31,811 bases of DNA. Source: a virus. A model generated the notes under the pieces. The model saw only the letters and a list, made by a program, of their open reading frames with translations. It was not told where the DNA came from and did not search any database. Within the stretch, counting starts at the first letter, position 1, and each line of letters starts with the position of its first letter. Shown piece by piece: positions 5,770 to 18,165 of this stretch. Made by a program: the position numbers and the translations under genes. The stretch is from UHGV virus genome UHGV-0116366; one strand, written 5' to 3'.

Positions 5770-6647
5770 CGTTAAACAAATATTGCCAGGCGCTGGCGGC
5801 ATTACGTAGCCAACCAGCCCACGAATTGAAAGAAGTTGGCGATCAGTGGCGGACGCCGGATCTGCTTTTTTGGGGGATCAACGCGCTATTTGGTCCATTA
5901 GTTCTGGACTTGTTTGCAGACGACGACAACGCGAAGTGCCCGGCATGGTACACCGCCGAAGATAACGCGCTGACACAGAACTGGTCTGAACGTCTGGATG
6001 AACTGGGCGGAGCGGCGTTTGCCAACCCTCCATATAGCCGCTCGCAGTATCACGACAGGCAGGCGATCACGGGTATGACACACATCATGAATCACACCAT
6101 GGACATGCGTGAAAGAGGTGGTCGCTATATTTACCTGGTGAAGTCTGCCACAAGTGAAACATGGTGGCCGGAAGATGCCGATCACATCATGTTTATTCGT
6201 GGTCGTATTGGGTTCGATCTGCCTGTGTGGTTTGTACCTGCTGACGAAAAACAGAAACCCACCAGCGCGTTTTTTGCCGGTGCCATAGCTGTATTCGATA
6301 AGTCATGGCGTGGTGAGCGGTTCAGCTATATCAACCGCACTGAGTTGGAGGCAAAAGGTCGGGCATTTATGGCGCTGGCTCAATTCGCTGTTGGTAAAGA
6401 GCAAACAATTGCAACGCTGGCAGCCCAGGAACCAGCAGCACCACCAAAAACTGAGTCACGAATCTGGCCTCTCGAAGTTGGTCTGGTGTTTAACCAAGTG
6501 GAAGGCGCTGATGTATTGAGCGAGGCCCAGCAGAACAAACTGAAAGCCAACATCAATCAACTCTGGCTGGAGCGGACGGCCACCAGCGAAATTATCGCAA
6601 TTGCGCGTGGCCTTGTTGGCAGCATGCAGGGGGTAACCCATGCGTGA
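5766..6647 (+). CDS. DNA N6-adenine methyltransferase (phage Dam-like) with C-terminal extension
   Basis: FANPPYS motif (NPPY catalytic motif of amino-MTases) in the N-terminal ~170 aa; C-terminal ~120 aa of unknown function. Confidence 0.75.
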   Translation: MTLNKYCQALAALRSQPAHELKEVGDQWRTPDLLFWGINALFGPLVLDLFADDDNAKCPAWYTAEDNALTQNWSERLDELGGAAFANPPYSRSQYHDRQAITGMTHIMNHTMDMRERGGRYIYLVKSATSETWWPEDADHIMFIRGRIGFDLPVWFVPADEKQKPTSAFFAGAIAVFDKSWRGERFSYINRTELEAKGRAFMALAQFAVGKEQTIATLAAQEPAAPPKTESRIWPLEVGLVFNQVEGADVLSEAQQNKLKANINQLWLERTATSEIIAIARGLVGSMQGVTHA

Positions 6648-8637
6648 GATTATCGTTGATAACTTTGCTGGTGGCGGTGGCGCATCAACGGGTATTGAAC
6701 TGGCAATCGGGCGCAGCGTGGATATTGCGATCAACCACGACGAAAACGCCATTGCGATGCACAAGACGAACCACCCGGACACACTGCATTATTGTGAATC
6801 CGTATTTGACGTGGATCCGGTAGCCGCCACCGGAGGTAATCCTGTCGGACTGGCATGGTTTAGCCCGGACTGCCGACACTTCTCGAAGGCAAAAGGCGCA
6901 AAGCCTGTGAAAAAAGAGATACGCGGTCTGGCCTGGATTGTTCTGCGTTGGGCACTGGCGAAGCGACCGCGCGTGATGATGCTGGAGAACGTGGAAGAGT
7001 TCAAAACGTGGGGACCGTTAATTGACATCCCGCCTAAACCTGATTTGCCGGAAGCCCTTTTGGCGGATTTTATTGGCCCGGTTTACCCTGGAAATAGTCG
7101 CCCAGACCCTGCCCGCACTGGAGAAACATTCAATGCATTTGTCGGCATGCTGTCCACTGGCATTCCTGCTGATCACCCGGCACTGGCTGAGGTTTGTGAG
7201 TTTCTGTCTATTGTAAGAGGTAGCGAGCAGGCGAAAAAGCTGGTGGATGGGCTCGGATATGATGTTGATTATCGTGAACTGCGCGCGTGTGATTACGGCG
7301 CGCCGACGATCCGCAAACGCTTCTTCATGGTTATGCGCTGCGATGGCTGCCCAATCCAGTGGCCTACTGTTACCCATGGGGATCCTAAGTCTCTGGAGGT
7401 GCAGAGCGGCAGGCTGATGCCATGGCGTACCGCTGCGGAATGTATCGACTGGAATGTTCCGGCCCTGTCCATCTTCGACCGCAAAAAACCGCTGGCGGAG
7501 AACACTTTGAAGCGGATCGCGCGCGGCATACAGCGCTTTGTTATCGAAAGTGCGTCGCCGTTTATCGTGAAGTGCAACCACACCACGACCAAAGGAAAAT
7601 ACGACTGTTTCCGTGGGCAGGAGTTGAGTGAGCCGCTGCAGACCATTACGAAAACCCATGGCTACGCGTTAGCCGTGCCACACCTGACAAAATTCCGCAC
7701 TGGCGCAACCGGGCAGCCCGTTACCGAGCCTGTCCCGACGGTAACCGCTGGCACATCAAAACGTCCAGGTGGGAATGGGCATGCACTCGGGATTGTTGAG
7801 GCTGCACTGACACCATTCCTGGCGGGTAATGGTGGTAGTGAATACCAGGCTAAACCACGCCCGCTGGATAAACCTGCTCATACCATTCTGAAGCAATCCC
7901 GCGCCTGTCTTGTTGCGCCAGTGATAGCCCGCCAGTTTGGGGCCAGCGTCGGCCATCGGGCAGACGAACCGAGCGCAACCATCACCGCTGGCGGTGGCGG
8001 TAAATCTCAACTGGTAACGCCTACGCTGATCCAGATGGGTTATGGCGAACGTCCAGGACAAGAACCGCGTGTGCTGCGACTGGATAACCCGCTGGGGACC
8101 GTTACTGCAGGTGGAAATAAATTCGCGACGGTGAGCGCGTTCCTGGCAAAACACTACGGCGGTAACTATACGGGGCCGGGTGTCAGTATGGATGAACCCG
8201 CGCACTCAGTGACCACTGTCGACCATCATGCAGTAGTTGCCTCTCATCTGGTGAAACTGCGAGGAACATGCCGCGACGGGCAGTGCCTTGATGTGCCCAT
8301 GCCAACAATCACCGCTGGTGGCCAACACGTGGGTGAGGTACGCACATTTCTCGAGACGTATTGCGGGGAAAGTGACGATGAATGGCTGGTAACGATCGAT
8401 GGGGTTAAATACCAGATCGTTGATATCGGAATGCGCATGTTGCAGCCGCATGAACTCTACAAAGCGCAGGGCTTCCCCGATGGATACGTTATTGATCAGG
8501 ACTACCGTGGAAATCGCTATGCAAAAGATAAGCAGGTAGCCCGCTGCGGTAATGCGGTACCACCACCATTCGCCAGGGCGCTGGTGGAGGCAAATCTTCC
8601 GGAACTGTGTGCAGTGCAACAGCAGGAGGTGGCATGA
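6640..8637 (+). CDS. DNA (cytosine-5) methyltransferase with unusually long variable region, possibly multispecific
   Basis: Motif I FAGGGG, PC-like motif FSPDCRHFS, motif VI MMLENV, motif VIII YGAPTIRKRFFMV, C-terminal CGNAVPPP. About 360 aa separate motif VIII from motif IX/X and contain four copies of a (T/V)(I/V)TAG(G/T) motif. Confidence 0.85.
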   Translation: MREIIVDNFAGGGGASTGIELAIGRSVDIAINHDENAIAMHKTNHPDTLHYCESVFDVDPVAATGGNPVGLAWFSPDCRHFSKAKGAKPVKKEIRGLAWIVLRWALAKRPRVMMLENVEEFKTWGPLIDIPPKPDLPEALLADFIGPVYPGNSRPDPARTGETFNAFVGMLSTGIPADHPALAEVCEFLSIVRGSEQAKKLVDGLGYDVDYRELRACDYGAPTIRKRFFMVMRCDGCPIQWPTVTHGDPKSLEVQSGRLMPWRTAAECIDWNVPALSIFDRKKPLAENTLKRIARGIQRFVIESASPFIVKCNHTTTKGKYDCFRGQELSEPLQTITKTHGYALAVPHLTKFRTGATGQPVTEPVPTVTAGTSKRPGGNGHALGIVEAALTPFLAGNGGSEYQAKPRPLDKPAHTILKQSRACLVAPVIARQFGASVGHRADEPSATITAGGGGKSQLVTPTLIQMGYGERPGQEPRVLRLDNPLGTVTAGGNKFATVSAFLAKHYGGNYTGPGVSMDEPAHSVTTVDHHAVVASHLVKLRGTCRDGQCLDVPMPTITAGGQHVGEVRTFLETYCGESDDEWLVTIDGVKYQIVDIGMRMLQPHELYKAQGFPDGYVIDQDYRGNRYAKDKQVARCGNAVPPPFARALVEANLPELCAVQQQEVA

Positions 8638-10726: not shown

Positions 10727-11089
10727 ATGCGTGATATTCAGATGGTTTTAGAACGCTGGGGGGGCTGGGCATCAGCTGATAATTCTGGCGTTGACTATTC
10801 CCATATTGCCGCTGGCTTCAAGGGACTTTTACCGCAGACAAGCAAAACCAGGTTGTCATGTACAGATGATGATGCGCTTATCATTGAAAGTTGCCTAGCA
10901 CGACTGAAAAGCCGAAAGCCATATGAGCATTCGCTTCTTGTCGCTCACTACCTTTACGGTATCTCGAAGAGGAAGATAGCAAAAGCGCGAAAGAAGGATG
11001 AGAAACTGATACGCATCGAGATACAGATGGCTGAGGGGTTTATAGATGGTTGTCTCTCAATGCTTGATGTTCGTCTAGATATGGACTAA
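10727..11089 (+). CDS. late-gene antiterminator Q (phage 82 / QuuD type)
   Basis: 120-aa protein beginning MRDIQMVLERWGGWA, characteristic of the small Q antiterminator family; GGAG RBS; located upstream of the lysis genes. Confidence 0.7.
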   Translation: MRDIQMVLERWGGWASADNSGVDYSHIAAGFKGLLPQTSKTRLSCTDDDALIIESCLARLKSRKPYEHSLLVAHYLYGISKRKIAKARKKDEKLIRIEIQMAEGFIDGCLSMLDVRLDMD

Positions 11090-11137: not shown

Positions 11138-11383
11138 CTAACTAAGGCCAAGGTATGCCAATACTACAGCTGTAATAATGCCAATAACAATACTTTTTAT
11201 GTTTTCTAAAATGAAATTAATAATCCTGCGCCATATAGTAATTGGATTTTCTTTCTTATATATCAATTTGTTAGTCGGCGCTCCAGACTTGTTTTTTTCA
11301 GCGAAAATATCATCTGCACCATCAATGTCAGCAAGTGTGCTTGAAGATGTTTCATTTTCATTAAGGTGTATTTTTTTTTGCAT
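11138..11383 (-). CDS. hypothetical membrane-anchored small protein (AT-rich moron)
   Basis: 81-aa ORF antisense to the late operon with a C-terminal hydrophobic helix (IVIGIITAVVLAYLGL); strongly AT-rich codons. Confidence 0.45.
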   Translation of the reverse strand: MQKKIHLNENETSSSTLADIDGADDIFAEKNKSGAPTNKLIYKKENPITIWRRIINFILENIKSIVIGIITAVVLAYLGLS

Positions 11384-11412
11384 TCCTTATGACAAACATT
11401 GGTCTATTATAT

Positions 11413-11703
11413 TTATCCATACAATACACTCCTTATAAATATACTGCATTGTGAAGGTTTGAAATTTGGTATGTTTTTTGTTACTCGTCGCATGCTGTGT
11501 GCATTAAATTTATCAATGTTTTTATTGGCCTTTATGGTTTTGCAATTGTCAATTATATAAGGTGTCTCACTACTGTTGGTTGTATTTCCATTTAAAGTTA
11601 TGCTTTCAACATTATTTGCGATGAGAAATGGAGTATTCAGGTTTGAGGTATTATTATTAAAAACTACGTGACCACAGTTTTGTACGTAAAATATTGCATG
11701 CAT
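11413..11703 (-). CDS. hypothetical Asn/Thr-rich protein (AT-rich moron)
   Basis: 96-aa ORF upstream of and co-oriented with 11138-11383. A sigma70-like promoter on the minus strand (TTCTCA - 17 nt - TATACT) lies just upstream at about 11720-11750. Weak RBS. Confidence 0.35.
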   Translation of the reverse strand: MHAIFYVQNCGHVVFNNNTSNLNTPFLIANNVESITLNGNTTNSSETPYIIDNCKTIKANKNIDKFNAHSMRRVTKNIPNFKPSQCSIFIRSVLYG

Positions 11704-11812
11704 ATTAGTAACTCACGAAAGCATTAGTATACAAAGCAAGCATAACATTGAGAACACTCTACAGATTTTTAAGGAAAAAACAATCACGCGGTCCGCATTA
11801 CTTGGTGTATTG

Positions 11813-11829
11813 TGTTAAGAGTGGTCACT
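11813..11829. repeat. copy 1 of 17-bp motif TGTTAAGAGTGGTCACT
   Basis: 16/17 identical to 15348-15364 (TGTTAAGAGTGGTTACT); both lie just upstream of rightward late-gene blocks after antisense moron insertions. Confidence 0.5.
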
Positions 11830-11855
11830 TAGACGCGAACTTAAATATTTCAGAA

Positions 11856-11881
11856 CCTCGCCAATCGGCGGGGTTTTTTTC
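11856..11881 (+). terminator. rho-independent terminator (tR'-like) upstream of the lysis cassette
   Basis: cctcgccaatcggcgggg hairpin followed by tttttttc; lies downstream of Q and upstream of the holin, as expected for a Q-modifiable terminator. Confidence 0.5.
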
Positions 11882-11989
11882 ATTTCAGGCCCAGGTTAAA
11901 AACTGCAGATTAACCGTGATCACATGAGCTTGCGGCCTGAACCCTTTCCCCTCGTTTCTGAGAGGATTCACAGCAATTGAGGGGGACAG

Positions 11990-12376
11990 ATGTCCGAACC
12001 AATAACCGGCACAGGTTTAGCTGGTGGCGCTTTAACTGGGGCGAGTGTTTACGGACTGTTAACCGGAACAGATTATGGTGTGGTGTTTGGCGCGTTTGCC
12101 GGGGCTGTATTTTACATTGCAACGGCTGCGGACCTTAGCGCAGCACGTCGGCTGGCGTATTTTGTCGTGTCCTACATTGCCGGGATCATCTGCTCAGGGC
12201 TGGTTGGTTCAAAGCTGGCTGACTGGACTGGTTACAGTGATAAGCCTCTGGACGCTATCGGAGCCGTAATCGTTTCTGCTTTAGCTGTCAAAATCCTGAC
12301 GTTCCTGAATAACCAGGATGTCGGCTCGCTGGTGGCGCTGATAACGCGCCGGGGAGGTTCAGGTGGTACTAAATGA
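11990..12376 (+). CDS. holin-like membrane protein
   Basis: 128-aa Gly/Ala-rich protein with several hydrophobic helices, first gene of the lysis cassette. Confidence 0.55.
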   Translation: MSEPITGTGLAGGALTGASVYGLLTGTDYGVVFGAFAGAVFYIATAADLSAARRLAYFVVSYIAGIICSGLVGSKLADWTGYSDKPLDAIGAVIVSALAVKILTFLNNQDVGSLVALITRRGGSGGTK

Positions 12377-12644
12377 CCCATCGGCAACAATCAACGCGCT
12401 GCTTTGCGCTGGGGTAGTGTTGACCCTGATGTTTTACCGTCGTGGTGATTCCCGACATCGACCATGGGTGTCTCGCTTAGCGTGGCTGCTTACGGTCATC
12501 TACAGCGCTGTACCACTGGCCTATCTGTGCGGTATCTACCCTTATTCATCGTGGGCCACTATCGGGGCCAACATTATTTTCCTGTCTGTGCTGGTCTCCG
12601 TCAGAGGCAATGTGGCGCGGCTTATTGATGCTGTTTACAAATAA
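12363..12644 (+). CDS. holin/antiholin-like membrane protein
   Basis: 93-aa protein with 2-3 TM segments and charged C-terminus; GTG start preceded by GGGGAGG; overlaps the upstream gene. Confidence 0.5.
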   Translation: MVLNDPSATINALLCAGVVLTLMFYRRGDSRHRPWVSRLAWLLTVIYSAVPLAYLCGIYPYSSWATIGANIIFLSVLVSVRGNVARLIDAVYK

Positions 12645-12799
12645 AAAAGCGAGTCGCAACGACATCGCTACAACCCGCAAAGTAGATAGAATCATTAGGA
12701 TTTATCTTAAGTCTCATTGTGACTTAAATTAAATTGAATTTCATCATCTTAGGTGAATTCTAATCCCTACCATTAATAGTGGTTTAATCCGGTACACAT

Positions 12800-13414
12800 A
12801 TGAACCAATCACAATTTCAGCAGGCGGCTGGTATCAGCGCCAGGCTTTCTGCACGCTGGTTTCCGCACATTGATGCGGCAATGAAAGAGTTTGGTATTAC
12901 AGCAGTTAATGATCAGGCCATGTTCATTGCGCAAGTCGGGCATGAGTCTGCTGGCTTTACCTCGCTGGCAGAAAGTTTTAACTACTCGGTTGAAGGGCTG
13001 AAGAAAACCTTCGGTAAGCGCCTGACGCCGTATCAGTGTGAAATGCTGGGGCGTGTTGATGGTAAGCAGGTGGCCCACCAGCCGCAAATAGCCAATCTGG
13101 TTTACGGTGACCGCATGGGGAATAACAGCCAGGGGGACGGCTGGAAATATCGCGGTCGTGGCCTGCTTCAAATCACCGGCCGTGAGAACTACACCAAATG
13201 CGGTGCGGCACTGAAACTTGACCTTGTCAGTACGCCAGAATTGCTAACGCAGGAACGACATGCGGCCCGTTCGGCGGCGTGGTACTTCACGTTACGCGGT
13301 TGCCTGATGTATTCGGGTGACGTGGAACGTGTAACGCAGATTATTAACGGCGGGCAGAACGGCATTAAAGACCGCCGTGAACGTTACGCCAAAGCAAAAG
13401 CCGCACTGGTATGA
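12800..13414 (+). CDS. endolysin, glycoside hydrolase family 19 (chitinase-like)
   Basis: MFIAQVGHESAGF...YRGRGLLQITGRENY...INGG is the GH19 phage endolysin signature. Confidence 0.85.
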   Translation: MNQSQFQQAAGISARLSARWFPHIDAAMKEFGITAVNDQAMFIAQVGHESAGFTSLAESFNYSVEGLKKTFGKRLTPYQCEMLGRVDGKQVAHQPQIANLVYGDRMGNNSQGDGWKYRGRGLLQITGRENYTKCGAALKLDLVSTPELLTQERHAARSAAWYFTLRGCLMYSGDVERVTQIINGGQNGIKDRRERYAKAKAALV

Positions 13415-13421
13415 GGTCACT

Positions 13422-13691
13422 ATGGGACTTGAAATGATTATCGGCCTGGTTGTTGCTGTGCTGGCTGCAATTGCAGGTGCTTTTGGTCTGGGTAAATCAC
13501 GCGGTACTAACATCGCTGAGACAAAAGCGAACCAGCAACGCACTGAAGAACGTGCAGCAGCTACTGAGGCCGTTGCAGAACGCCGGGTAGAAACAACAAA
13601 AGGAGCCAGGGATGTACAGCAGACTGTTAATCATCTTCCTGATGACGATGTTGACCGCGAGTTGCGCGAAAACTTTACCCGCAAAACCTGA
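13422..13691 (+). CDS. i-spanin (Rz-like)
   Basis: N-terminal TM (MGLEMIIGLVVAVLAAIAGAF) followed by a charged, coiled-coil-like periplasmic domain, immediately after the endolysin. Confidence 0.7.
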   Translation: MGLEMIIGLVVAVLAAIAGAFGLGKSRGTNIAETKANQQRTEERAAATEAVAERRVETTKGARDVQQTVNHLPDDDVDRELRENFTRKT

Positions 13692-13860
13692 AGTAACGGA
13701 CACGGCCTGTGACTGGGTAAGCATCATCTACCTCACTGAGCACGATATTGCTGTGCTGGATAAGCAGACTAAGAAAGACATTCTAGCGCATAACAAAGCA
13801 TGGCAGTCAAATTGTGAAAATGCGACTGTGAGCCTTAATCCTATAATGACCACGAAATAG
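13612..13860 (+). CDS. o-spanin (Rz1-like lipoprotein), overlapping Rz out of frame
   Basis: Signal peptide with lipobox LTASC; starts inside Rz in another frame and extends beyond it. Confidence 0.65.
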   Translation: MYSRLLIIFLMTMLTASCAKTLPAKPEVTDTACDWVSIIYLTEHDIAVLDKQTKKDILAHNKAWQSNCENATVSLNPIMTTK

Positions 13861-13899
13861 AAAATTGCTATGTTGTATCTTTCAAATGAGGGGAGCAGC

Positions 13900-14136
13900 A
13901 TGAGCCAAGTTACATTAACTATTAGTGAACTTTATGAAATTGCAGAGCAGTATTATGGAAACGAACTCTACCGTATAGAAGTTTGCAACATTGGAATTAG
14001 GTTCGTGTGTTTGGATCGTAGCAAGGGCAATGAAGAGTACTCTGCATTTTTCCAGACTCCTTTAAAAAATCTGTCTATAAACTCACTTAGAGGCTTTCTC
14101 GATGCGGAAACACAGGAGGAAAGCATAAGCAATTGA
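13900..14136 (+). CDS. hypothetical small protein (AT-rich moron)
   Basis: Start at 13900 preferred (GAGGGGAG RBS); product MSQVTLTISELYEIAEQYYGNELYRIEV... has no recognisable family. Confidence 0.45.
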   Translation: MSQVTLTISELYEIAEQYYGNELYRIEVCNIGIRFVCLDRSKGNEEYSAFFQTPLKNLSINSLRGFLDAETQEESISN

Positions 14137-14296
14137 AGGGCAGGTCACCTTTGATGGTGTCATTTGCTTGAATTGTTTTAAAAATGCACAAGCCCGTTAC
14201 AGTGTGAATGTGGTATGCATTACTGCGGGTATTTGCTGAGTGCCTGTGTTAATGTTGCTGCTGTAATAATGAGATGGTTTGTAAAAAAGGAAGGGA

Positions 14297-14611
14297 TTGA
14301 AAATGATTTTCCAAAATATTCAGACGTACTACATTACCAGCGATAAACATAAGGTTATTCCGCGATATGTCCGATATGACGTAATTAAATTGGATGATAA
14401 TGCTTACATAGTAAATGTTATTGATGACCAACAAAGAGGTATCTCGCCCCCTTATAGTCTTGTTATGTTAGATAAAATTACAATTACTAAAGCTGAGTAT
14501 CTTGATAAGTACCAAATTGGTTCCTTTACTGGGGTTAGAACGCAAAGTCCTCCAACCTTTGAAGGATATATTACAGAACATCTTCAAGAGCATCGTAATC
14601 AGTTAGATTAA
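14297..14611 (+). CDS. hypothetical protein (AT-rich moron)
   Basis: 104-aa ORF with AAGGAAGGG RBS; followed by a terminator hairpin. Confidence 0.5.
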   Translation: MKMIFQNIQTYYITSDKHKVIPRYVRYDVIKLDDNAYIVNVIDDQQRGISPPYSLVMLDKITITKAEYLDKYQIGSFTGVRTQSPPTFEGYITEHLQEHRNQLD

Positions 14612-14624
14612 GTTCCGTATCAAC

Positions 14625-14668
14625 ATAAGCCACTGTTTTTCTATGGTGGCTTATGTGTGTTTTTATTT
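14625..14668 (+). terminator. terminator hairpin between convergent moron genes
   Basis: ataagccac ... gtggcttat inverted repeat followed by gtgtgttttta. Confidence 0.5.
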
Positions 14669-14678
14669 AGCTGTGCAT

Positions 14679-15047
14679 TCAAAGAAATATTTTATTGATT
14701 AATGCTTCTATAGATGGCCAGATGGATAAGGTATTTGCACCGATGCTAGTAAGTTTTTCAAGAAGGTCAACTTTTGACTCTTTCGTCGGCTCAATTTCAC
14801 TAATGGTAGCAAGTAATCGGTCATAACCTTTTTGACCTAACTCTTTTTCGCATACACTTTTGTTACTCTTGATTAAAAGTTGAGCTTGATAAATTAGTTC
14901 AAGCGTCTCCCTATTGCCGATCAGATTCTCATTAACTTTTGTATTAGGAGAATTCACTACTTCAATTGCTGTATCTATAACATCAACAGTGTTGTTATTC
15001 ACTTCGCAACCAATTGAGTCTTTAATAACAATACCTTTGAGAGCCAT
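14679..15047 (-). CDS. hypothetical protein, possible C-terminal part of a split HEAT-repeat protein
   Basis: ATG at 15047 preceded by GAGGT RBS; lies 9-20 nt downstream of the HEAT-repeat ORF in a different frame. Confidence 0.45.
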   Translation of the reverse strand: MALKGIVIKDSIGCEVNNNTVDVIDTAIEVVNSPNTKVNENLIGNRETLELIYQAQLLIKSNKSVCEKELGQKGYDRLLATISEIEPTKESKVDLLEKLTSIGANTLSIWPSIEALINKIFL

Positions 15048-15067
15048 GGCATACCTCACTAAAGATT

Positions 15068-15274
15068 TTATTTTCGACGATATAAACGACCAAGAGCAGT
15101 GACCGCAGCGACTTGAACATCAGAATTTGAGTCCTTCGTCATAGTTAACAACCGCGAAGCAATTTCACTAGTTGCTGTGGCACCCTCTCCGAGCGCTAAA
15201 GCAGCGGCAGTTTTAACTTTTACGTCACTATCTTTTGTCATGATTAACAAACGATTAGCAATTTCACTTAGCAT
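15068..15274 (-). CDS. small HEAT-like repeat protein
   Basis: Two ~30-aa internal repeats (EIANRLLIMTKDSDVKVKTAAALALGEG / EIASRLLTMTKDSNSDVQVAAVTALGRL) matching the D-x-x-V-(R/K)-x-x-A-A-x-A-L-G pattern of PBS-lyase HEAT-like repeats; strong GAGGAGGG RBS. Confidence 0.55.
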   Translation of the reverse strand: MLSEIANRLLIMTKDSDVKVKTAAALALGEGATATSEIASRLLTMTKDSNSDVQVAAVTALGRLYRRK

Positions 15275-15347
15275 GATCCCTCCTCATATAAATATCTCTA
15301 CACCATATGGCAACATATTTTGGTTAGCAATACATTGTTTTCAAACC

Positions 15348-15364
15348 TGTTAAGAGTGGTTACT
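15348..15364. repeat. copy 2 of 17-bp motif TGTTAAGAGTGGTTACT
   Basis: See 11813-11829. Confidence 0.5.
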
Positions 15365-15458
15365 GAGGAACTACCAAATTTACTTCGTACTCGAAGTGTC
15401 TTTAACTAATGTTTACGCGCATTAGACAATGTGCCACCGTAAAAGTGAGAGGACTTCA

Positions 15459-15809
15459 ATGCCTGAAAGAACACCTAAAGCCTGCCGTGTTCGAGGCTGC
15501 CGAGGCACGACTACTGATCCATCAGGCTATTGTGAAAGCCATAAAAGTGAAGGGTGGAAATCCTACAAACCGGGGAAATCCCGGCATCAGCGTGGTTATG
15601 GGACAAAGTGGGAAGTCATACGCGCTCGCATACTGAAGCGTGACAAAGCTCTATGCCAGAACCATCTACGTGAGGGAGTTGTGAAACAGGCTTCATGTGT
15701 GGACCACATCAAAGCGAAGGCCCACGGCGGTACTGATGAAGACAGCAACCTTGAAAGCCTGTGCTGGTCGTGTCATGCAGCGAAGACCGCGCGTGAGCGG
15801 CTCAAGTGA
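15459..15809 (+). CDS. HNH endonuclease (packaging-associated)
   Basis: Cys-rich zinc-finger/HNH pattern (CRVRGC...CESH...H...CW.CH) in the usual position upstream of terS in HK97-like cos phages; the ORF is open from 15429. Confidence 0.8.
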   Translation: MPERTPKACRVRGCRGTTTDPSGYCESHKSEGWKSYKPGKSRHQRGYGTKWEVIRARILKRDKALCQNHLREGVVKQASCVDHIKAKAHGGTDEDSNLESLCWSCHAAKTARERLK

Positions 15810-15934: not shown

Positions 15935-16435
15935 ATGGCTGGAACGGCGGGGCGTTCCGGGCGTCGGCCTAAGCCAACGGCGCGCAAGGAGCTGGCTGGA
16001 AACCCCGGCAAGCGAGCCCTGAATAAAGATGAACCGGTATTCACGCCGATTAAAGGAGTGGAGCCACCAGAATGGTTTTCCGATGTAGACGATGGCCTGC
16101 CGCTGGCAACGATCATGTGGGAGCTGACTACAAAGGAGTTATGCGGTCAGGGACTCTTATGCGTCACTGATCTGGCCGTACTGGAGCGCTGGTGTGTCGC
16201 ATATGAATTCTGGCGAAGGGCTGTGAAAAATATCGCCGTGGAAGGTCTTTCAGTTACTGGGGCCATGGGCGGTAAAATAAAAAACCCCGAACTCACCGCC
16301 AAAAAAGAGCAGGAATCGGAGATGAGTTCTACCGGTTCAATGCTTGGCCTTGACCCAAGCAGCCGTCAGCGGCTCGTTGGCCTGGCCGGAAAGAAACAAG
16401 CCTCTAACCCATTCCTTAAGATGATTAGCTCATGA
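15935..16435 (+). CDS. terminase small subunit (P27 family)
   Basis: 166-aa protein [30 protein letters not shown]... typical of P27-family TerS; immediately upstream of terL. Confidence 0.85.
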
Positions 16436-18165
16436 GCCGGAAATCGTACCCCAACGTTAATGCCGCGAATCAGTACGCCCGTAACGTAGTGCGGGGAAAG
16501 ATTCCGGCATGTCAGTTCGTCATTCAGGCATGCCAGCGTCATATCGATGACATGGTCGCAGAGAAAAGTAAGAAGTTCCGGTACCGCTTCGATAAAGATG
16601 CAGCGGAGAAGGCCGCAAAGTTTATTCAACTGCTGCCGCACACAAAGGGAGAGTGGGCGTTCAAAAGAATGCCGATAACCCTGGAGCCGTGGCAACTTTT
16701 TATTGTGTGCAGCGCCTTTGGCTGGGTACAGAAGGGAACGAAGCTTCGCCGTTTTCGGGAGGTCTACACCGAGATTCCCCGTAAGAACGGCAAATCTGCG
16801 ATTTCAGCTGGTGTGGCGCTCTACTGCTTCACCTGTGATAACGAGTTCGGTGCTGAAGTTTACTCTGGCGCGACAACGGAAAAACAGGCGTGGGAAGTAT
16901 TCCGTCCCGCTCGCTTGATGTGCAAGCGTACGCCGCTGCTGGTGGAAGCGTTCGGCATTGAGGTAAACGCCTCTAACCTGAACCGTCCCGAGGACGGCGC
17001 ACGCTTTGAGCCGCTGATCGGCAATCCCGGCGACGGTGCTTCACCGCATTGTGCGATTGTCGACGAATATCACGAACACCCTACTGATTCGCTGTACACC
17101 ACTATGCTGACGGGCATGGGCGCGCGCCGACAACCGCTGATGTGGGCGATCACCACAGCAGGTTACAACATCGAAGGACCGTGCTACGACAAACGACGTG
17201 AAGTGATTGAAATGCTGAATGGCACGGTACCCAACGACGAGTTGTTTGGCGTGATCTATACGGTTGATGAAGGTGACGACTGGACTGATCCAAAGGTGCT
17301 TGAGAAAGCCAATCCGAATATGGGTGTCTCTGTCTACCGCGACTTCCTGTTGAGCCAACAGCAACGTGCTGTGAACAATGCCCGTCAGGCTGGTGTTTTT
17401 AAAACGAAGCATCTCAACATCTGGGTTGCTGCTCGGGCCGCATTCTTCAACCTGGTTTCTTGGCAGAACTGTGAAGACAAGACGCTTACCCTCGAACAAT
17501 TCGAAGGTCAGCCATGCGTTCTGGCTTTTGACCTGGCGCGAAAGCTGGACATGAACAGTATGGCGCGGTTGTTCACCAGGGAGATTGACGGTAAGACACA
17601 TTATTACAGTGTTGCGCCTCGTTTCTGGGTTCCTTATGACACGGTTTTCAGTGTTGAAAAAAACGAAGACCGTCGCACGGCTGAGCGCTTCCAGAAGTGG
17701 GTTGAAATGGGGTTGCTCACCGTGACTGATGGGGCAGAGGTTGATTACCGTTACATCCTCGAAGAGGCAAAAGCGGCAAATAAACTGAACCCTGTAAGCG
17801 AGTCGCCGATTGACCCATTTGGCGCAACGGGACTGTCTCACGATCTTGCTGATGAAAGCCTTAACCCGATAACTATTGTTCAGAACTACACCAACATGTC
17901 GGACCCGATGAAAGAGCTGGAGGCCGCAATTGAGTCTGGGCGTTTTCATCACGACGGAAATCCGATTATGGGCTGGTGTATTAGCAACGTCGTCGGAAAG
18001 TATCTCCCGGGCAACGACGATGTGGTTAAACCCATCAAAGAGCAGAACGAAAACAAAATCGATGGTGCGGTTGCACTGATTATGTCGATTGGTCGTTCAA
18101 TGCTTTACGAAAAGGTGGACTCTATCTCCGAGCGTATCGAATCCCGCGGCATCCGCTCACTTTAA
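16432..18165 (+). CDS. terminase large subunit
   Basis: 577-aa protein with ATPase and nuclease regions ([14 protein letters not shown]..., AIVDEYHEH...) in HK97-like arrangement. Confidence 0.9.

Follow-up and report, generated by a model that had tools for sequence, protein, structure and literature searches.

Two near-identical copies of a 17-nucleotide (nt) sequence occur within the late region of virus genome UHGV-0116366, within a stretch of 31,811 nt that is referred to here as the window, that is, the whole stretch of DNA that was analyzed; it corresponds to ENA contig ERZ651867 NODE_1118. A search of the window with TGTTAAGAGTGGTYACT, allowing up to two mismatches, yielded exactly two matches, both on the plus strand: copy 1, TGTTAAGAGTGGTCACT, at 11813–11829, and copy 2, TGTTAAGAGTGGTTACT, at 15348–15364. 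The copies are identical at 16 of 17 positions, the sole difference being C versus T at motif position 14, and a repeat search lengthened the pair to 18 identical positions out of 20, the first 13 of which match exactly. Both copies occupy divergent intergenic regions. Copy 1 lies 724 base pairs (bp) past the stop codon of the gene for the antiterminator Q and 161 bp ahead of the ATG of a holin gene (11990); it is located 110 bp upstream of the start of an AT-rich minus-strand open reading frame (ORF; 11413–11703). Copy 2 lies 4.3 kb from Q, beyond the lysis genes, 95 bp ahead of the ATG of an HNH endonuclease gene (15459) and 74 bp upstream of the point at which a minus-strand ORF for a HEAT-repeat protein (15068–15274) starts. 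GC content drops to 0.30–0.36 across both antisense blocks. The preliminary description of the window had reported this repeat, and had placed each copy just after an antisense AT-rich moron and just before the resumption of rightward late genes; both statements are borne out by the search, the ORF map and the GC profile. In 100 dinucleotide-preserving shuffles of the window no match to TGTTAAGAGTGGTYACT was obtained, with none expected by chance.

To describe the parts of the locus around copy 1, we number motif positions from T1 = 11813 and use a profile of 62 unique sequences that were selected by Q homology and anchored on the motif. The following features were assigned:

11775–11780, plus strand: A-tract at motif positions −38 to −33 (about −45 to −40 from the start site); A at −38 to −34 in 54–60 of the 62 unique relatives.

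11787–11797, plus strand: palindrome CGCGGTCCGCA at −26 to −16, with its core GCGGTCCGC at 11788–11796 (−25 to −17); candidate Q-binding element.

11808–11813, plus strand: predicted −10 hexamer TATTGT of the late promoter PR′, family pattern TAnnnT (−5 to +1); aligns with TATCAT of 933W and Sp5.

11813–11832, plus strand: copy 1, the PR′ core, covering promoter positions −7 to +13 (the 17-mer itself −7 to +10); predicted start A11820.

11840–11845, plus strand: CTTAAA box at motif +28 to +33 (about 29–34 in the profile); T30, A32, A33 and the preceding CAC (22–24) are conserved.

11852–11885, plus strand: intrinsic, tR′-like terminator, about 32–65 nt past the predicted start, with an 11-bp stem that contains six GC pairs and a T-run.

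In the profile, the 13-mer TGnTAAGAGTGGT is nearly invariant, with only position 3 free, and T−5, A−4 and T+1 are present in 62 of 62 sequences. The palindrome CGCGGTCCGCA is likewise invariant at −26 to −16 in these loci. Conservation extends beyond the 13-mer to C16, T17, G20, the CAC at 22–24 and the CTTAAA box, and the tR′-like terminator sits at the same place in relatives as well as in 933W, whose record labels it a putative tR′. The A-tract is possibly an UP-element. A consensus promoter scan makes no call at the copy 1 PR′, and the TAnnnT hexamer is invariant. A search against Rfam gave no match at gathering thresholds in the whole window and only sub-threshold chance matches in 11600–15600. 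A stem between GTG (9–11) and CAC (22–24) was considered and dropped; the variants G9A and G11A are uncompensated.

A class-B consensus of the PR′ region matched 358 phage records, among which Stx1- and Stx2-converting phages are dominant and which also include 434, SfII and cdtI. The match in 933W falls under features annotated as ‘promoter, homologous to pR′’ and ‘terminator, homologous to tR′’; the sequence there reads TTTACGATCGTAAAAATCTGCATATCA-TGATAAGAGTGGT-…terminator, with TATCAT as the −10 element. The window Q and the Q of 933W share 46% identity (BLASTP, E 2e-36), and a protein identical to the window Q is annotated in Citrobacter sp. Cb013 and also occurs in the C. freundii complex. 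For the related prophage Sakai Sp5, Sy et al. mapped the primary PR′ start by differential RNA sequencing (dRNA-seq) and the 3′ end of a 258-nt StxS precursor by Term-seq (PMC7547250). In NC_002695.2, the U-run of the second terminator ends 258 nt after motif A8, which places the Sp5 start at A8 within 1–2 nt, 7 nt downstream of the TATCAT hexamer. A start at A8 would make TAnnnT the −10 hexamer of PR′ and assign promoter positions −7 to +10 to the 17-mer; by this alignment, the start in the window is expected at about A11820. The 17-mer would accordingly hold the last base of the −10 hexamer, the start site and a look-alike of the lambda sigma70 pause element.

We consider it likely that copy 1 is the PR′ core of a Q-dependent late cassette and that copy 2 is an orphan core fragment, most probably a relic of recombination. 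Copy 1 is of an essentially known kind, namely the late-promoter or Q-utilisation core of the 933W type, here in a Citrobacter prophage. For this copy the proposal of a late-promoter or Q-utilisation element in the preliminary description stands: the motif is the core of a PR′-qut-tR′ cassette associated with a 933W-like Q family, and the Sp5 start falls inside it. Without Q, transcripts of about 65 nt would be expected to stop at the terminator at 11852–11885. Q loaded on the paused complex would then let RNA polymerase pass through to the lysis genes and, 3.5 kb farther, to the packaging block. In the Stx phages, a canonical-looking terminator is located only about 25–50 nt past the PR′ start (Sakai Sp5, L349 870–895), and the published Sp5 transcript nonetheless ends at the second terminator, at +258 (L349 1075–1103); the window has a terminator of the first type (11852–11885). 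The predicted RNA of about 65 nt could be a by-product small RNA resembling StxS.

The association of the motif with Q was also seen among relatives. The segment from 11808 onward is conserved in the Klebsiella phages ST13-OXA48phi12.2 and ST846-OXA48phi9.1 and in mEp390, always between Q and holin, with or without an antisense moron. A motif scan of IMG/VR gave at least 120 loci, which together with three from the phage database form a set of 123. Among the 123 motif-selected loci listed, 94 have a Q homolog (44–91% identity) 5–3043 bp upstream; the others have too little upstream sequence or are chance matches in unrelated DNA. When loci were picked by Q homology alone, 77 of 80 carried the motif downstream of Q (at most two mismatches, Q strand), with one real copy each, and the number of extra near-matches in these 80 loci was that predicted by chance. 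Such extra sites in L197, L174 and L142, those of L197 lying in or beside an antisense ORF, were rejected as real copies on account of this chance-level number. A pattern of 15 specified bases run over 596 Gb of genomes returned mostly chance matches across phyla and was useless for finding two-copy loci. In many relatives the motif follows directly after Q without an antisense gene (5–50 bp; for example L001). Because the Q-to-motif distance ranges from 5 to 3043 bp, the interval between Q and the promoter is a variable cargo slot.

The palindrome at −25 to −17 changes as a block among Q subfamilies while remaining palindromic and in register. In 105 of 108 unique pairs of Q and upstream sequence, the palindrome class maps one-to-one to the class of the C-terminal helix-turn-helix of Q, giving seven classes; of the three exceptions, two carry a palindrome that departs from the cognate one by a single base. 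The pairings are as follows:

GCGGTCCGC, with Q helix-turn-helix segment ...SKRKIAKARKKDEKLIRIEIQ... (the window class).

GCGTACGC, with ...SLRTIAKKRKCSDGTIRKELQ...

TTTACGTACGTAAA, with ...KHCCSDGYIGKRLQ...

TTTACRATCGTAAA, 933W included, with ...RKHG.SD..[VI]G..LQ...

TGTTATAACA, with ...ISLNQVVIRLQ...

ATTCGTTACGAAT, with ...CSEGKIRNRL...

TGGAATTCCA, with one further Q class.

The variable segment of Q begins at residues aligned to S93, K94 and H95 of Q21, in the helix that contacts DNA; these three Q21 residues make DNA contacts (PMC6606751). Because the palindrome class co-varies with the Q helix-turn-helix at residues aligned to DNA contacts, the palindrome is likely, on sequence grounds, to be a class-specific Q-binding element. 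Across L001–L203, the position equivalent to 11787–11797 falls into at least seven palindrome classes, a candidate specificity code unlike the direct repeat of Q21.

The interior of the core resembles a promoter-proximal pause signal. The established sigma70-dependent pause element of lambda is AACGAT, with Q loading at the pause site at +16/+17; the lambda PR′ is laid out as TAAATT-tgactc-A(+1)ACGAT-GGG-ttaatt-C(+16)G(+17). The layout of the copy 1 core is TAnnnT-G-n-TAAGAGT-GGT-yw-C-T-w-Y-G. A second −10-like element within it admits two readings, the extended −10 form TGnTAAGAG or AAGAGT with A−11/T−7; a GGT triplet comes next and, 9–11 nt further, a T-N-Y-G site. From this likeness a sigma70-dependent pause is predicted at about +12/+13. 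Presumably the 13-mer is the same across Q classes since it is read by host sigma70 and RNA polymerase and not by Q, which would explain its identity across Q proteins that differ at more than half of their residues.

We next turn to copy 2, for which the following features were assigned:

15320–15348, plus strand: weak promoter-like setting, TTGGTT (15320–15325), a 17-bp spacer and AAACCT (15343–15348); not called by the consensus scan.

15344–15367, plus strand: copy 2, an orphan piece of the PR′ core, resembling PR′ regions between about −5 and +20 only (about 25 bp).

15382–15397, plus strand: 6-bp hairpin ACTTCG-TACT-CGAAGT downstream of copy 2, with no U-tract; absent from the list of terminator-like structures.

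The longest identity between copy 2 and any of 253 PR′ flanks is 21 nt. Compared with the 62-sequence profile, copy 2 shows no in-register palindrome, no A-tract and no CAC or CTTAAA box, and it has A at −5, where 62 of 62 real promoters have T. The promoter-like setting partly coincides with a site on the minus strand, TTGAAA-16-CAAAAT (15344–15317), that resembles a promoter of the HEAT gene. A palindrome upstream of copy 2, CAATACATTG, was rejected as a binding element, being 6 bp out of register and fitting no Q class. Since it is without the candidate Q-binding palindrome and a terminator, copy 2 is very probably not a second Q-utilisation site. At most it would have weak, Q-independent promoter or pause activity, because strong initiation with no terminator behind it would turn on the packaging genes in lysogens.

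Every contig with this HEAT allele (seven distinct contexts) or this HNH allele (eight contexts) has an identical copy 2. Three of these contigs encode a Q of 192 amino acids (aa) that is 21% identical to the window Q, with a different promoter region and no motif between Q and holin. Being kept in prophages with another Q type, copy 2 therefore moves together with the module of cargo and HNH rather than with a cognate Q. In prophages whose HEAT genes beside HNH are 50–53% diverged, the spacer is an unrelated, motif-free one of 132 bp, so that copy 2 is no general requirement of the HEAT–HNH junction. With regard to the 192-aa Q, five loci that share the lysis and packaging modules of the window (L204, L206, L208, L212 and L222) have this DUF1133/PF06530 Q, then ...GCGAACTGAGCAACA..., then a terminator. 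The TGAGCA that follows this Q matches the Q-binding subsite of phage 21; the 192-aa Q itself is without a sequence match to the Q21 structures. A likeness of the core to TTAAATTGTGGT after the 192-aa Q was set aside as likely coincidental, the TTAA there including the Q stop codon.

Joints between mosaic segments gather at the core. Among pairs of PR′ loci with at least 95% identity downstream and unrelated upstream sequences, similarity is lost at −1 to −8 in 49 of 51; among pairs with the same upstream and different downstream sequences, the break falls at +28 to +56. These pairs are not phylogenetically independent. Because the breaks cluster at the core edges, the core appears to be a favoured site of mosaic joining. 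On its left, copy 2 ends at −5, where joints usually fall; its end on the right, at +20, is less typical. In keeping with these joints, copy 2, which lies at the right-hand border of a second cargo slot, is most likely what recombination at a PR′ core has left behind. The two proposals made in the preliminary description thus divide between the copies. A duplicated Q-utilisation element does not hold for copy 2, which retains about 25 bp of the cassette, has neither palindrome, CAC/CTTAAA elements nor a U-tract terminator, and occurs with other Q types. A recombination scar suits copy 2 better, given the joints at the core edges. The motif is no general mark of moron insertions: the suggested search of related prophages found many in which it comes straight after Q with no moron, so that it does not mark cargo boundaries as a rule.

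Several points weigh against the assignment of copy 1 as a Q-dependent PR′ core and of copy 2 as a relic. The start site is carried over from a system related at 46%, through a match of RNA length and terminator position that is good to within 2 nt. The −10-like element overlaps the start (−4 to +3, versus +1 to +6 in lambda) and in one register ends in G and not T, so that the pause is suggested by resemblance. Linkage contributes to the correlation between Q and palindrome, though up to 3 kb of unrelated cargo parts the two. Copy 2 keeps 13 of 13 core bases plus five of the next seven, in late-gene orientation, and it has a −35-like TTGGTT at 17 bp and a hexamer with A−11/T−7. All contigs with copy 2 are more than 98.6% identical, too alike to gauge selective constraint. 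Finally, a search for a donor context of copy 2, with HEAT between Q and PR′, did not find one. The HEAT homologs in this search formed only five clusters, all about 50% identical, all beside HNH and all with an unrelated spacer. Relatives of the copy 2 flank were found neither in the phage database (blastn) nor in complete E. coli genomes or GTDB representative genomes; there was no exact 21-mer of the flank in IMG/VR, and none in JGI metagenomes with a core-plus-flank pattern or the HNH leader. Exact look-ups of HNH and HEAT returned the same module only.

The alternative that survives best, although we judge it unlikely, is that copy 2 is a working second late promoter, independent of Q, which restarts or boosts transcription of the HNH, terminase and head genes past the antisense cargo island. 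Copy 2 points in the late-gene direction and is preserved over the discriminator, the start site and the first transcribed bases as far as +13, and its hexamer AAACCT, with A−11 and T−7, stands 17 bp from TTGGTT. The silence of the promoter scan is uninformative here, since the real PR′ of the 933W-like family is also without a consensus −35 and is missed by the same scan. Nevertheless, the T at −12 that is present in 62 of 62 real promoters is A in copy 2, and the A-tract is absent. Activity without a terminator would express the packaging genes in lysogens, the same HEAT–HNH layout with diverged alleles has no such element, and polymerase modified by Q at PR′ should need no restart.

It is considerably less probable that the 13-mer itself is the recognition site of Q, both copies being Q-utilisation sites at which Q is loaded, or reloaded, before each late block. 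The motif is indeed nearly invariant and tightly tied to the 933W-like Q family, as such a site would be; the same 13-mer, however, serves Q proteins that are 44–50% identical and differ in their helix-turn-helix, and it is the palindrome that changes with them. In Q21, furthermore, the binding element is placed upstream of the −10 region instead of over the start site (PMC6606751), and copy 2 persists in prophages whose Q is 21% identical and whose promoter region differs. We give even less weight to the motif as an operator or promoter element that the antisense morons have in common, although both copies lie upstream of divergent AT-rich ORFs and have minus-strand promoter-like sites nearby (11754–11726 and 15344–15317): the distance to these sites is about 60 bp in one case and 4 bp in the other, the two cargo sets are unrelated, and many relatives have the motif 5–50 bp after Q without an antisense gene. 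A chance origin of the second copy can practically be dismissed, because an exact second 13-mer in 2 × 31.8 kb has an estimated chance frequency of only about 1e-3; the 15-specified-base pattern does match many unrelated taxa in 596 Gb, but none of the 100 shuffles matched, and the copies agree at 13 of 13 and overall 18 of 20 positions on the same strand in a similar intergenic setting.

The cassette and its orphan fragment are embedded in a late region whose gene order around copy 1 is DUF968 protein, Q, two antisense cargo ORFs, copy 1, terminator, holins, endolysin and spanins. The genes and remaining elements of this region are:

10727–11089, plus strand: Q antiterminator, 120 aa, a 933W-like short Q (Pfam PF06530, E 1.6e-53).

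11138–11703, minus strand: two AT-rich antisense cargo ORFs (81 and 96 aa) between Q and the late promoter; no Pfam matches, GC 0.30–0.33.

11990–13860, plus strand: lysis cassette with two holins, endolysin and spanins, the first late genes (PF16931, PF05449; ORFs; homologs in relatives).

14217–14256, plus strand: conserved 40-bp element, a hairpin and then TGTTAATG, located where the lysis module ends and the second cargo slot has its left edge.

14679–15274, minus strand: antisense cargo with a 122-aa ORF (14679–15047) and a 68-aa HEAT-repeat ORF (15068–15274); HEAT Pfam matches, GC 0.33–0.43.

15459–15809, plus strand: HNH endonuclease gene, first of the packaging block (PF01844; gene calls).

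15935–16435 and 16432–18165, plus strand: terS and terL, respectively, the packaging block after HNH.

A number of further observations concern the cargo island between the lysis and packaging genes and its surroundings. The element at 14217–14256, GCATTACAGCAGGCATTCACTGAGTGCCTGTGATAATG, comprises about 40 bp, in which a 6-bp hairpin precedes a TGnTAAT-like sequence. Further occurrences are in L003 (4627–4664), L050, L073, L093, L114, L131, L142, L143, L164, L181, L211–L216 and L319, and matches of 84–85% are found after the lysis genes of many otherwise unrelated phages, with different cargo behind each. The element may act as a terminator or a promoter, or as a site of processing. Between the convergent ORFs 14297–14611 (plus strand) and 14679–15047 (minus strand), a hairpin with a 14-bp stem and T-runs is located at 14623–14656; its appearance is that of a bidirectional terminator within this island, one that Q-modified polymerase would need to pass. 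The HEAT-repeat protein (68–69 aa) consists of two repeats, and its gene contains an internal 38-nt direct repeat (15132–15169 and 15231–15268). This gene (15068–15274, minus strand) is divergent to and adjoins HNH in several prophage lineages (L211–L225), and the alleles found there are only about 50% identical, which indicates that the HEAT slot is a recurrent cargo position. Farther upstream, at 6640–8637, ahead of the RusA-like and Q region, the ORF list contains a 665-aa ORF with a start motif resembling that of DNA cytosine methyltransferases (FAGGGG) and a long C-terminal extension.

Taken together, these data make the 17-mer a reliable landmark of the late promoter in a large family of enterobacterial prophages that includes the Stx phages, and one that locates PR′ even where kilobases of cargo follow Q. 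The pairing of Q helix-turn-helix and palindrome around a constant start-site core amounts to a testable specificity code for 933W-type Q proteins. This map of Q–palindrome specificity and the clustering of joints at the core edges are the most useful by-products of the analysis; the second, orphan copy, if inactive, is no more than a minor curiosity. In a more far-reaching picture, to which we assign a low probability, the core of about 20 bp (TAnnnT-GnTAAGAGTGGT-ywCTnnG) would be a promoter-plus-pause cassette read by host sigma70, Q specificity would come from the exchangeable palindrome (at least seven classes), and the orphan copy would be live and independent of Q. If this were true, the copy before HNH would not be a dead scar; it would re-prime or tune transcription of the packaging genes past the antisense cargo island.

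The late region of the window can be compared with four known systems. As in mosaic lambdoid phages, where short conserved boundary sequences stand at module junctions, similarity between PR′ loci starts and stops at the edges of the core; the shared sequence here, however, is a promoter core and not a neutral linker, and the orphan copy lies outside any Q–PR′ context. The lambda PR′ with its 6S RNA follows the same logic: the promoter is constitutive, and it is succeeded by a −10-like element close to the start, a triplet rich in G, a Y-G pause site (in the window a candidate one) about 10 nt on and a terminator. Lambda Q, in contrast, belongs to an unrelated family (PF03589), its binding element is unlike the copy 1 palindrome, and the lambda pause element occupies +1 to +6, whereas its look-alike in the window lies at about −4 to +3.

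Q21 of phage 21 and the window Q both belong to PF06530, and the window Q gives a weak match to the structures 6p18 and 6jnx (E 2e-4). The Q21 site consists of a direct-repeat TGAGCA binding element at −25 to −12 plus a pause element (PMC6606751; bioRxiv 10.1101/651190). In both systems the binding element, a candidate one in the window, lies upstream of the −10 region; in the window it is an inverted repeat, centred about 7–8 bp further upstream than the Q21 direct repeat. No TGAGCA repeat with subsites 8 bp apart was found at 11780–11815, the conserved upstream element there being the inverted repeat, and the binding element of 933W-type Q proteins appears not to be a direct repeat of the Q21 kind. 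The window Q, of 120 aa, has a short turn in place of the long loop of Q21. The loading complex of Q21 contains an 11-nt RNA (bioRxiv 10.1101/651190), and such an early pause capture is compatible with the geometry in the window.

The closest likeness is to the Stx phages 933W, Sakai Sp5 and H-19B, which have a homologous Q and, placed after it, a palindrome, TAnnnT, TGnTAAGAGTGGT and a terminator in the same order. The palindrome of 933W is TTTACGATCGTAAA, compared with GCGGTCCGC in the window, and the helix-turn-helix of Q differs too. In the window, unlike in the Stx phages, two antisense cargo ORFs part Q from the promoter, holins follow downstream in place of tRNAs and stx, and an extra orphan core is present 3.5 kb downstream.

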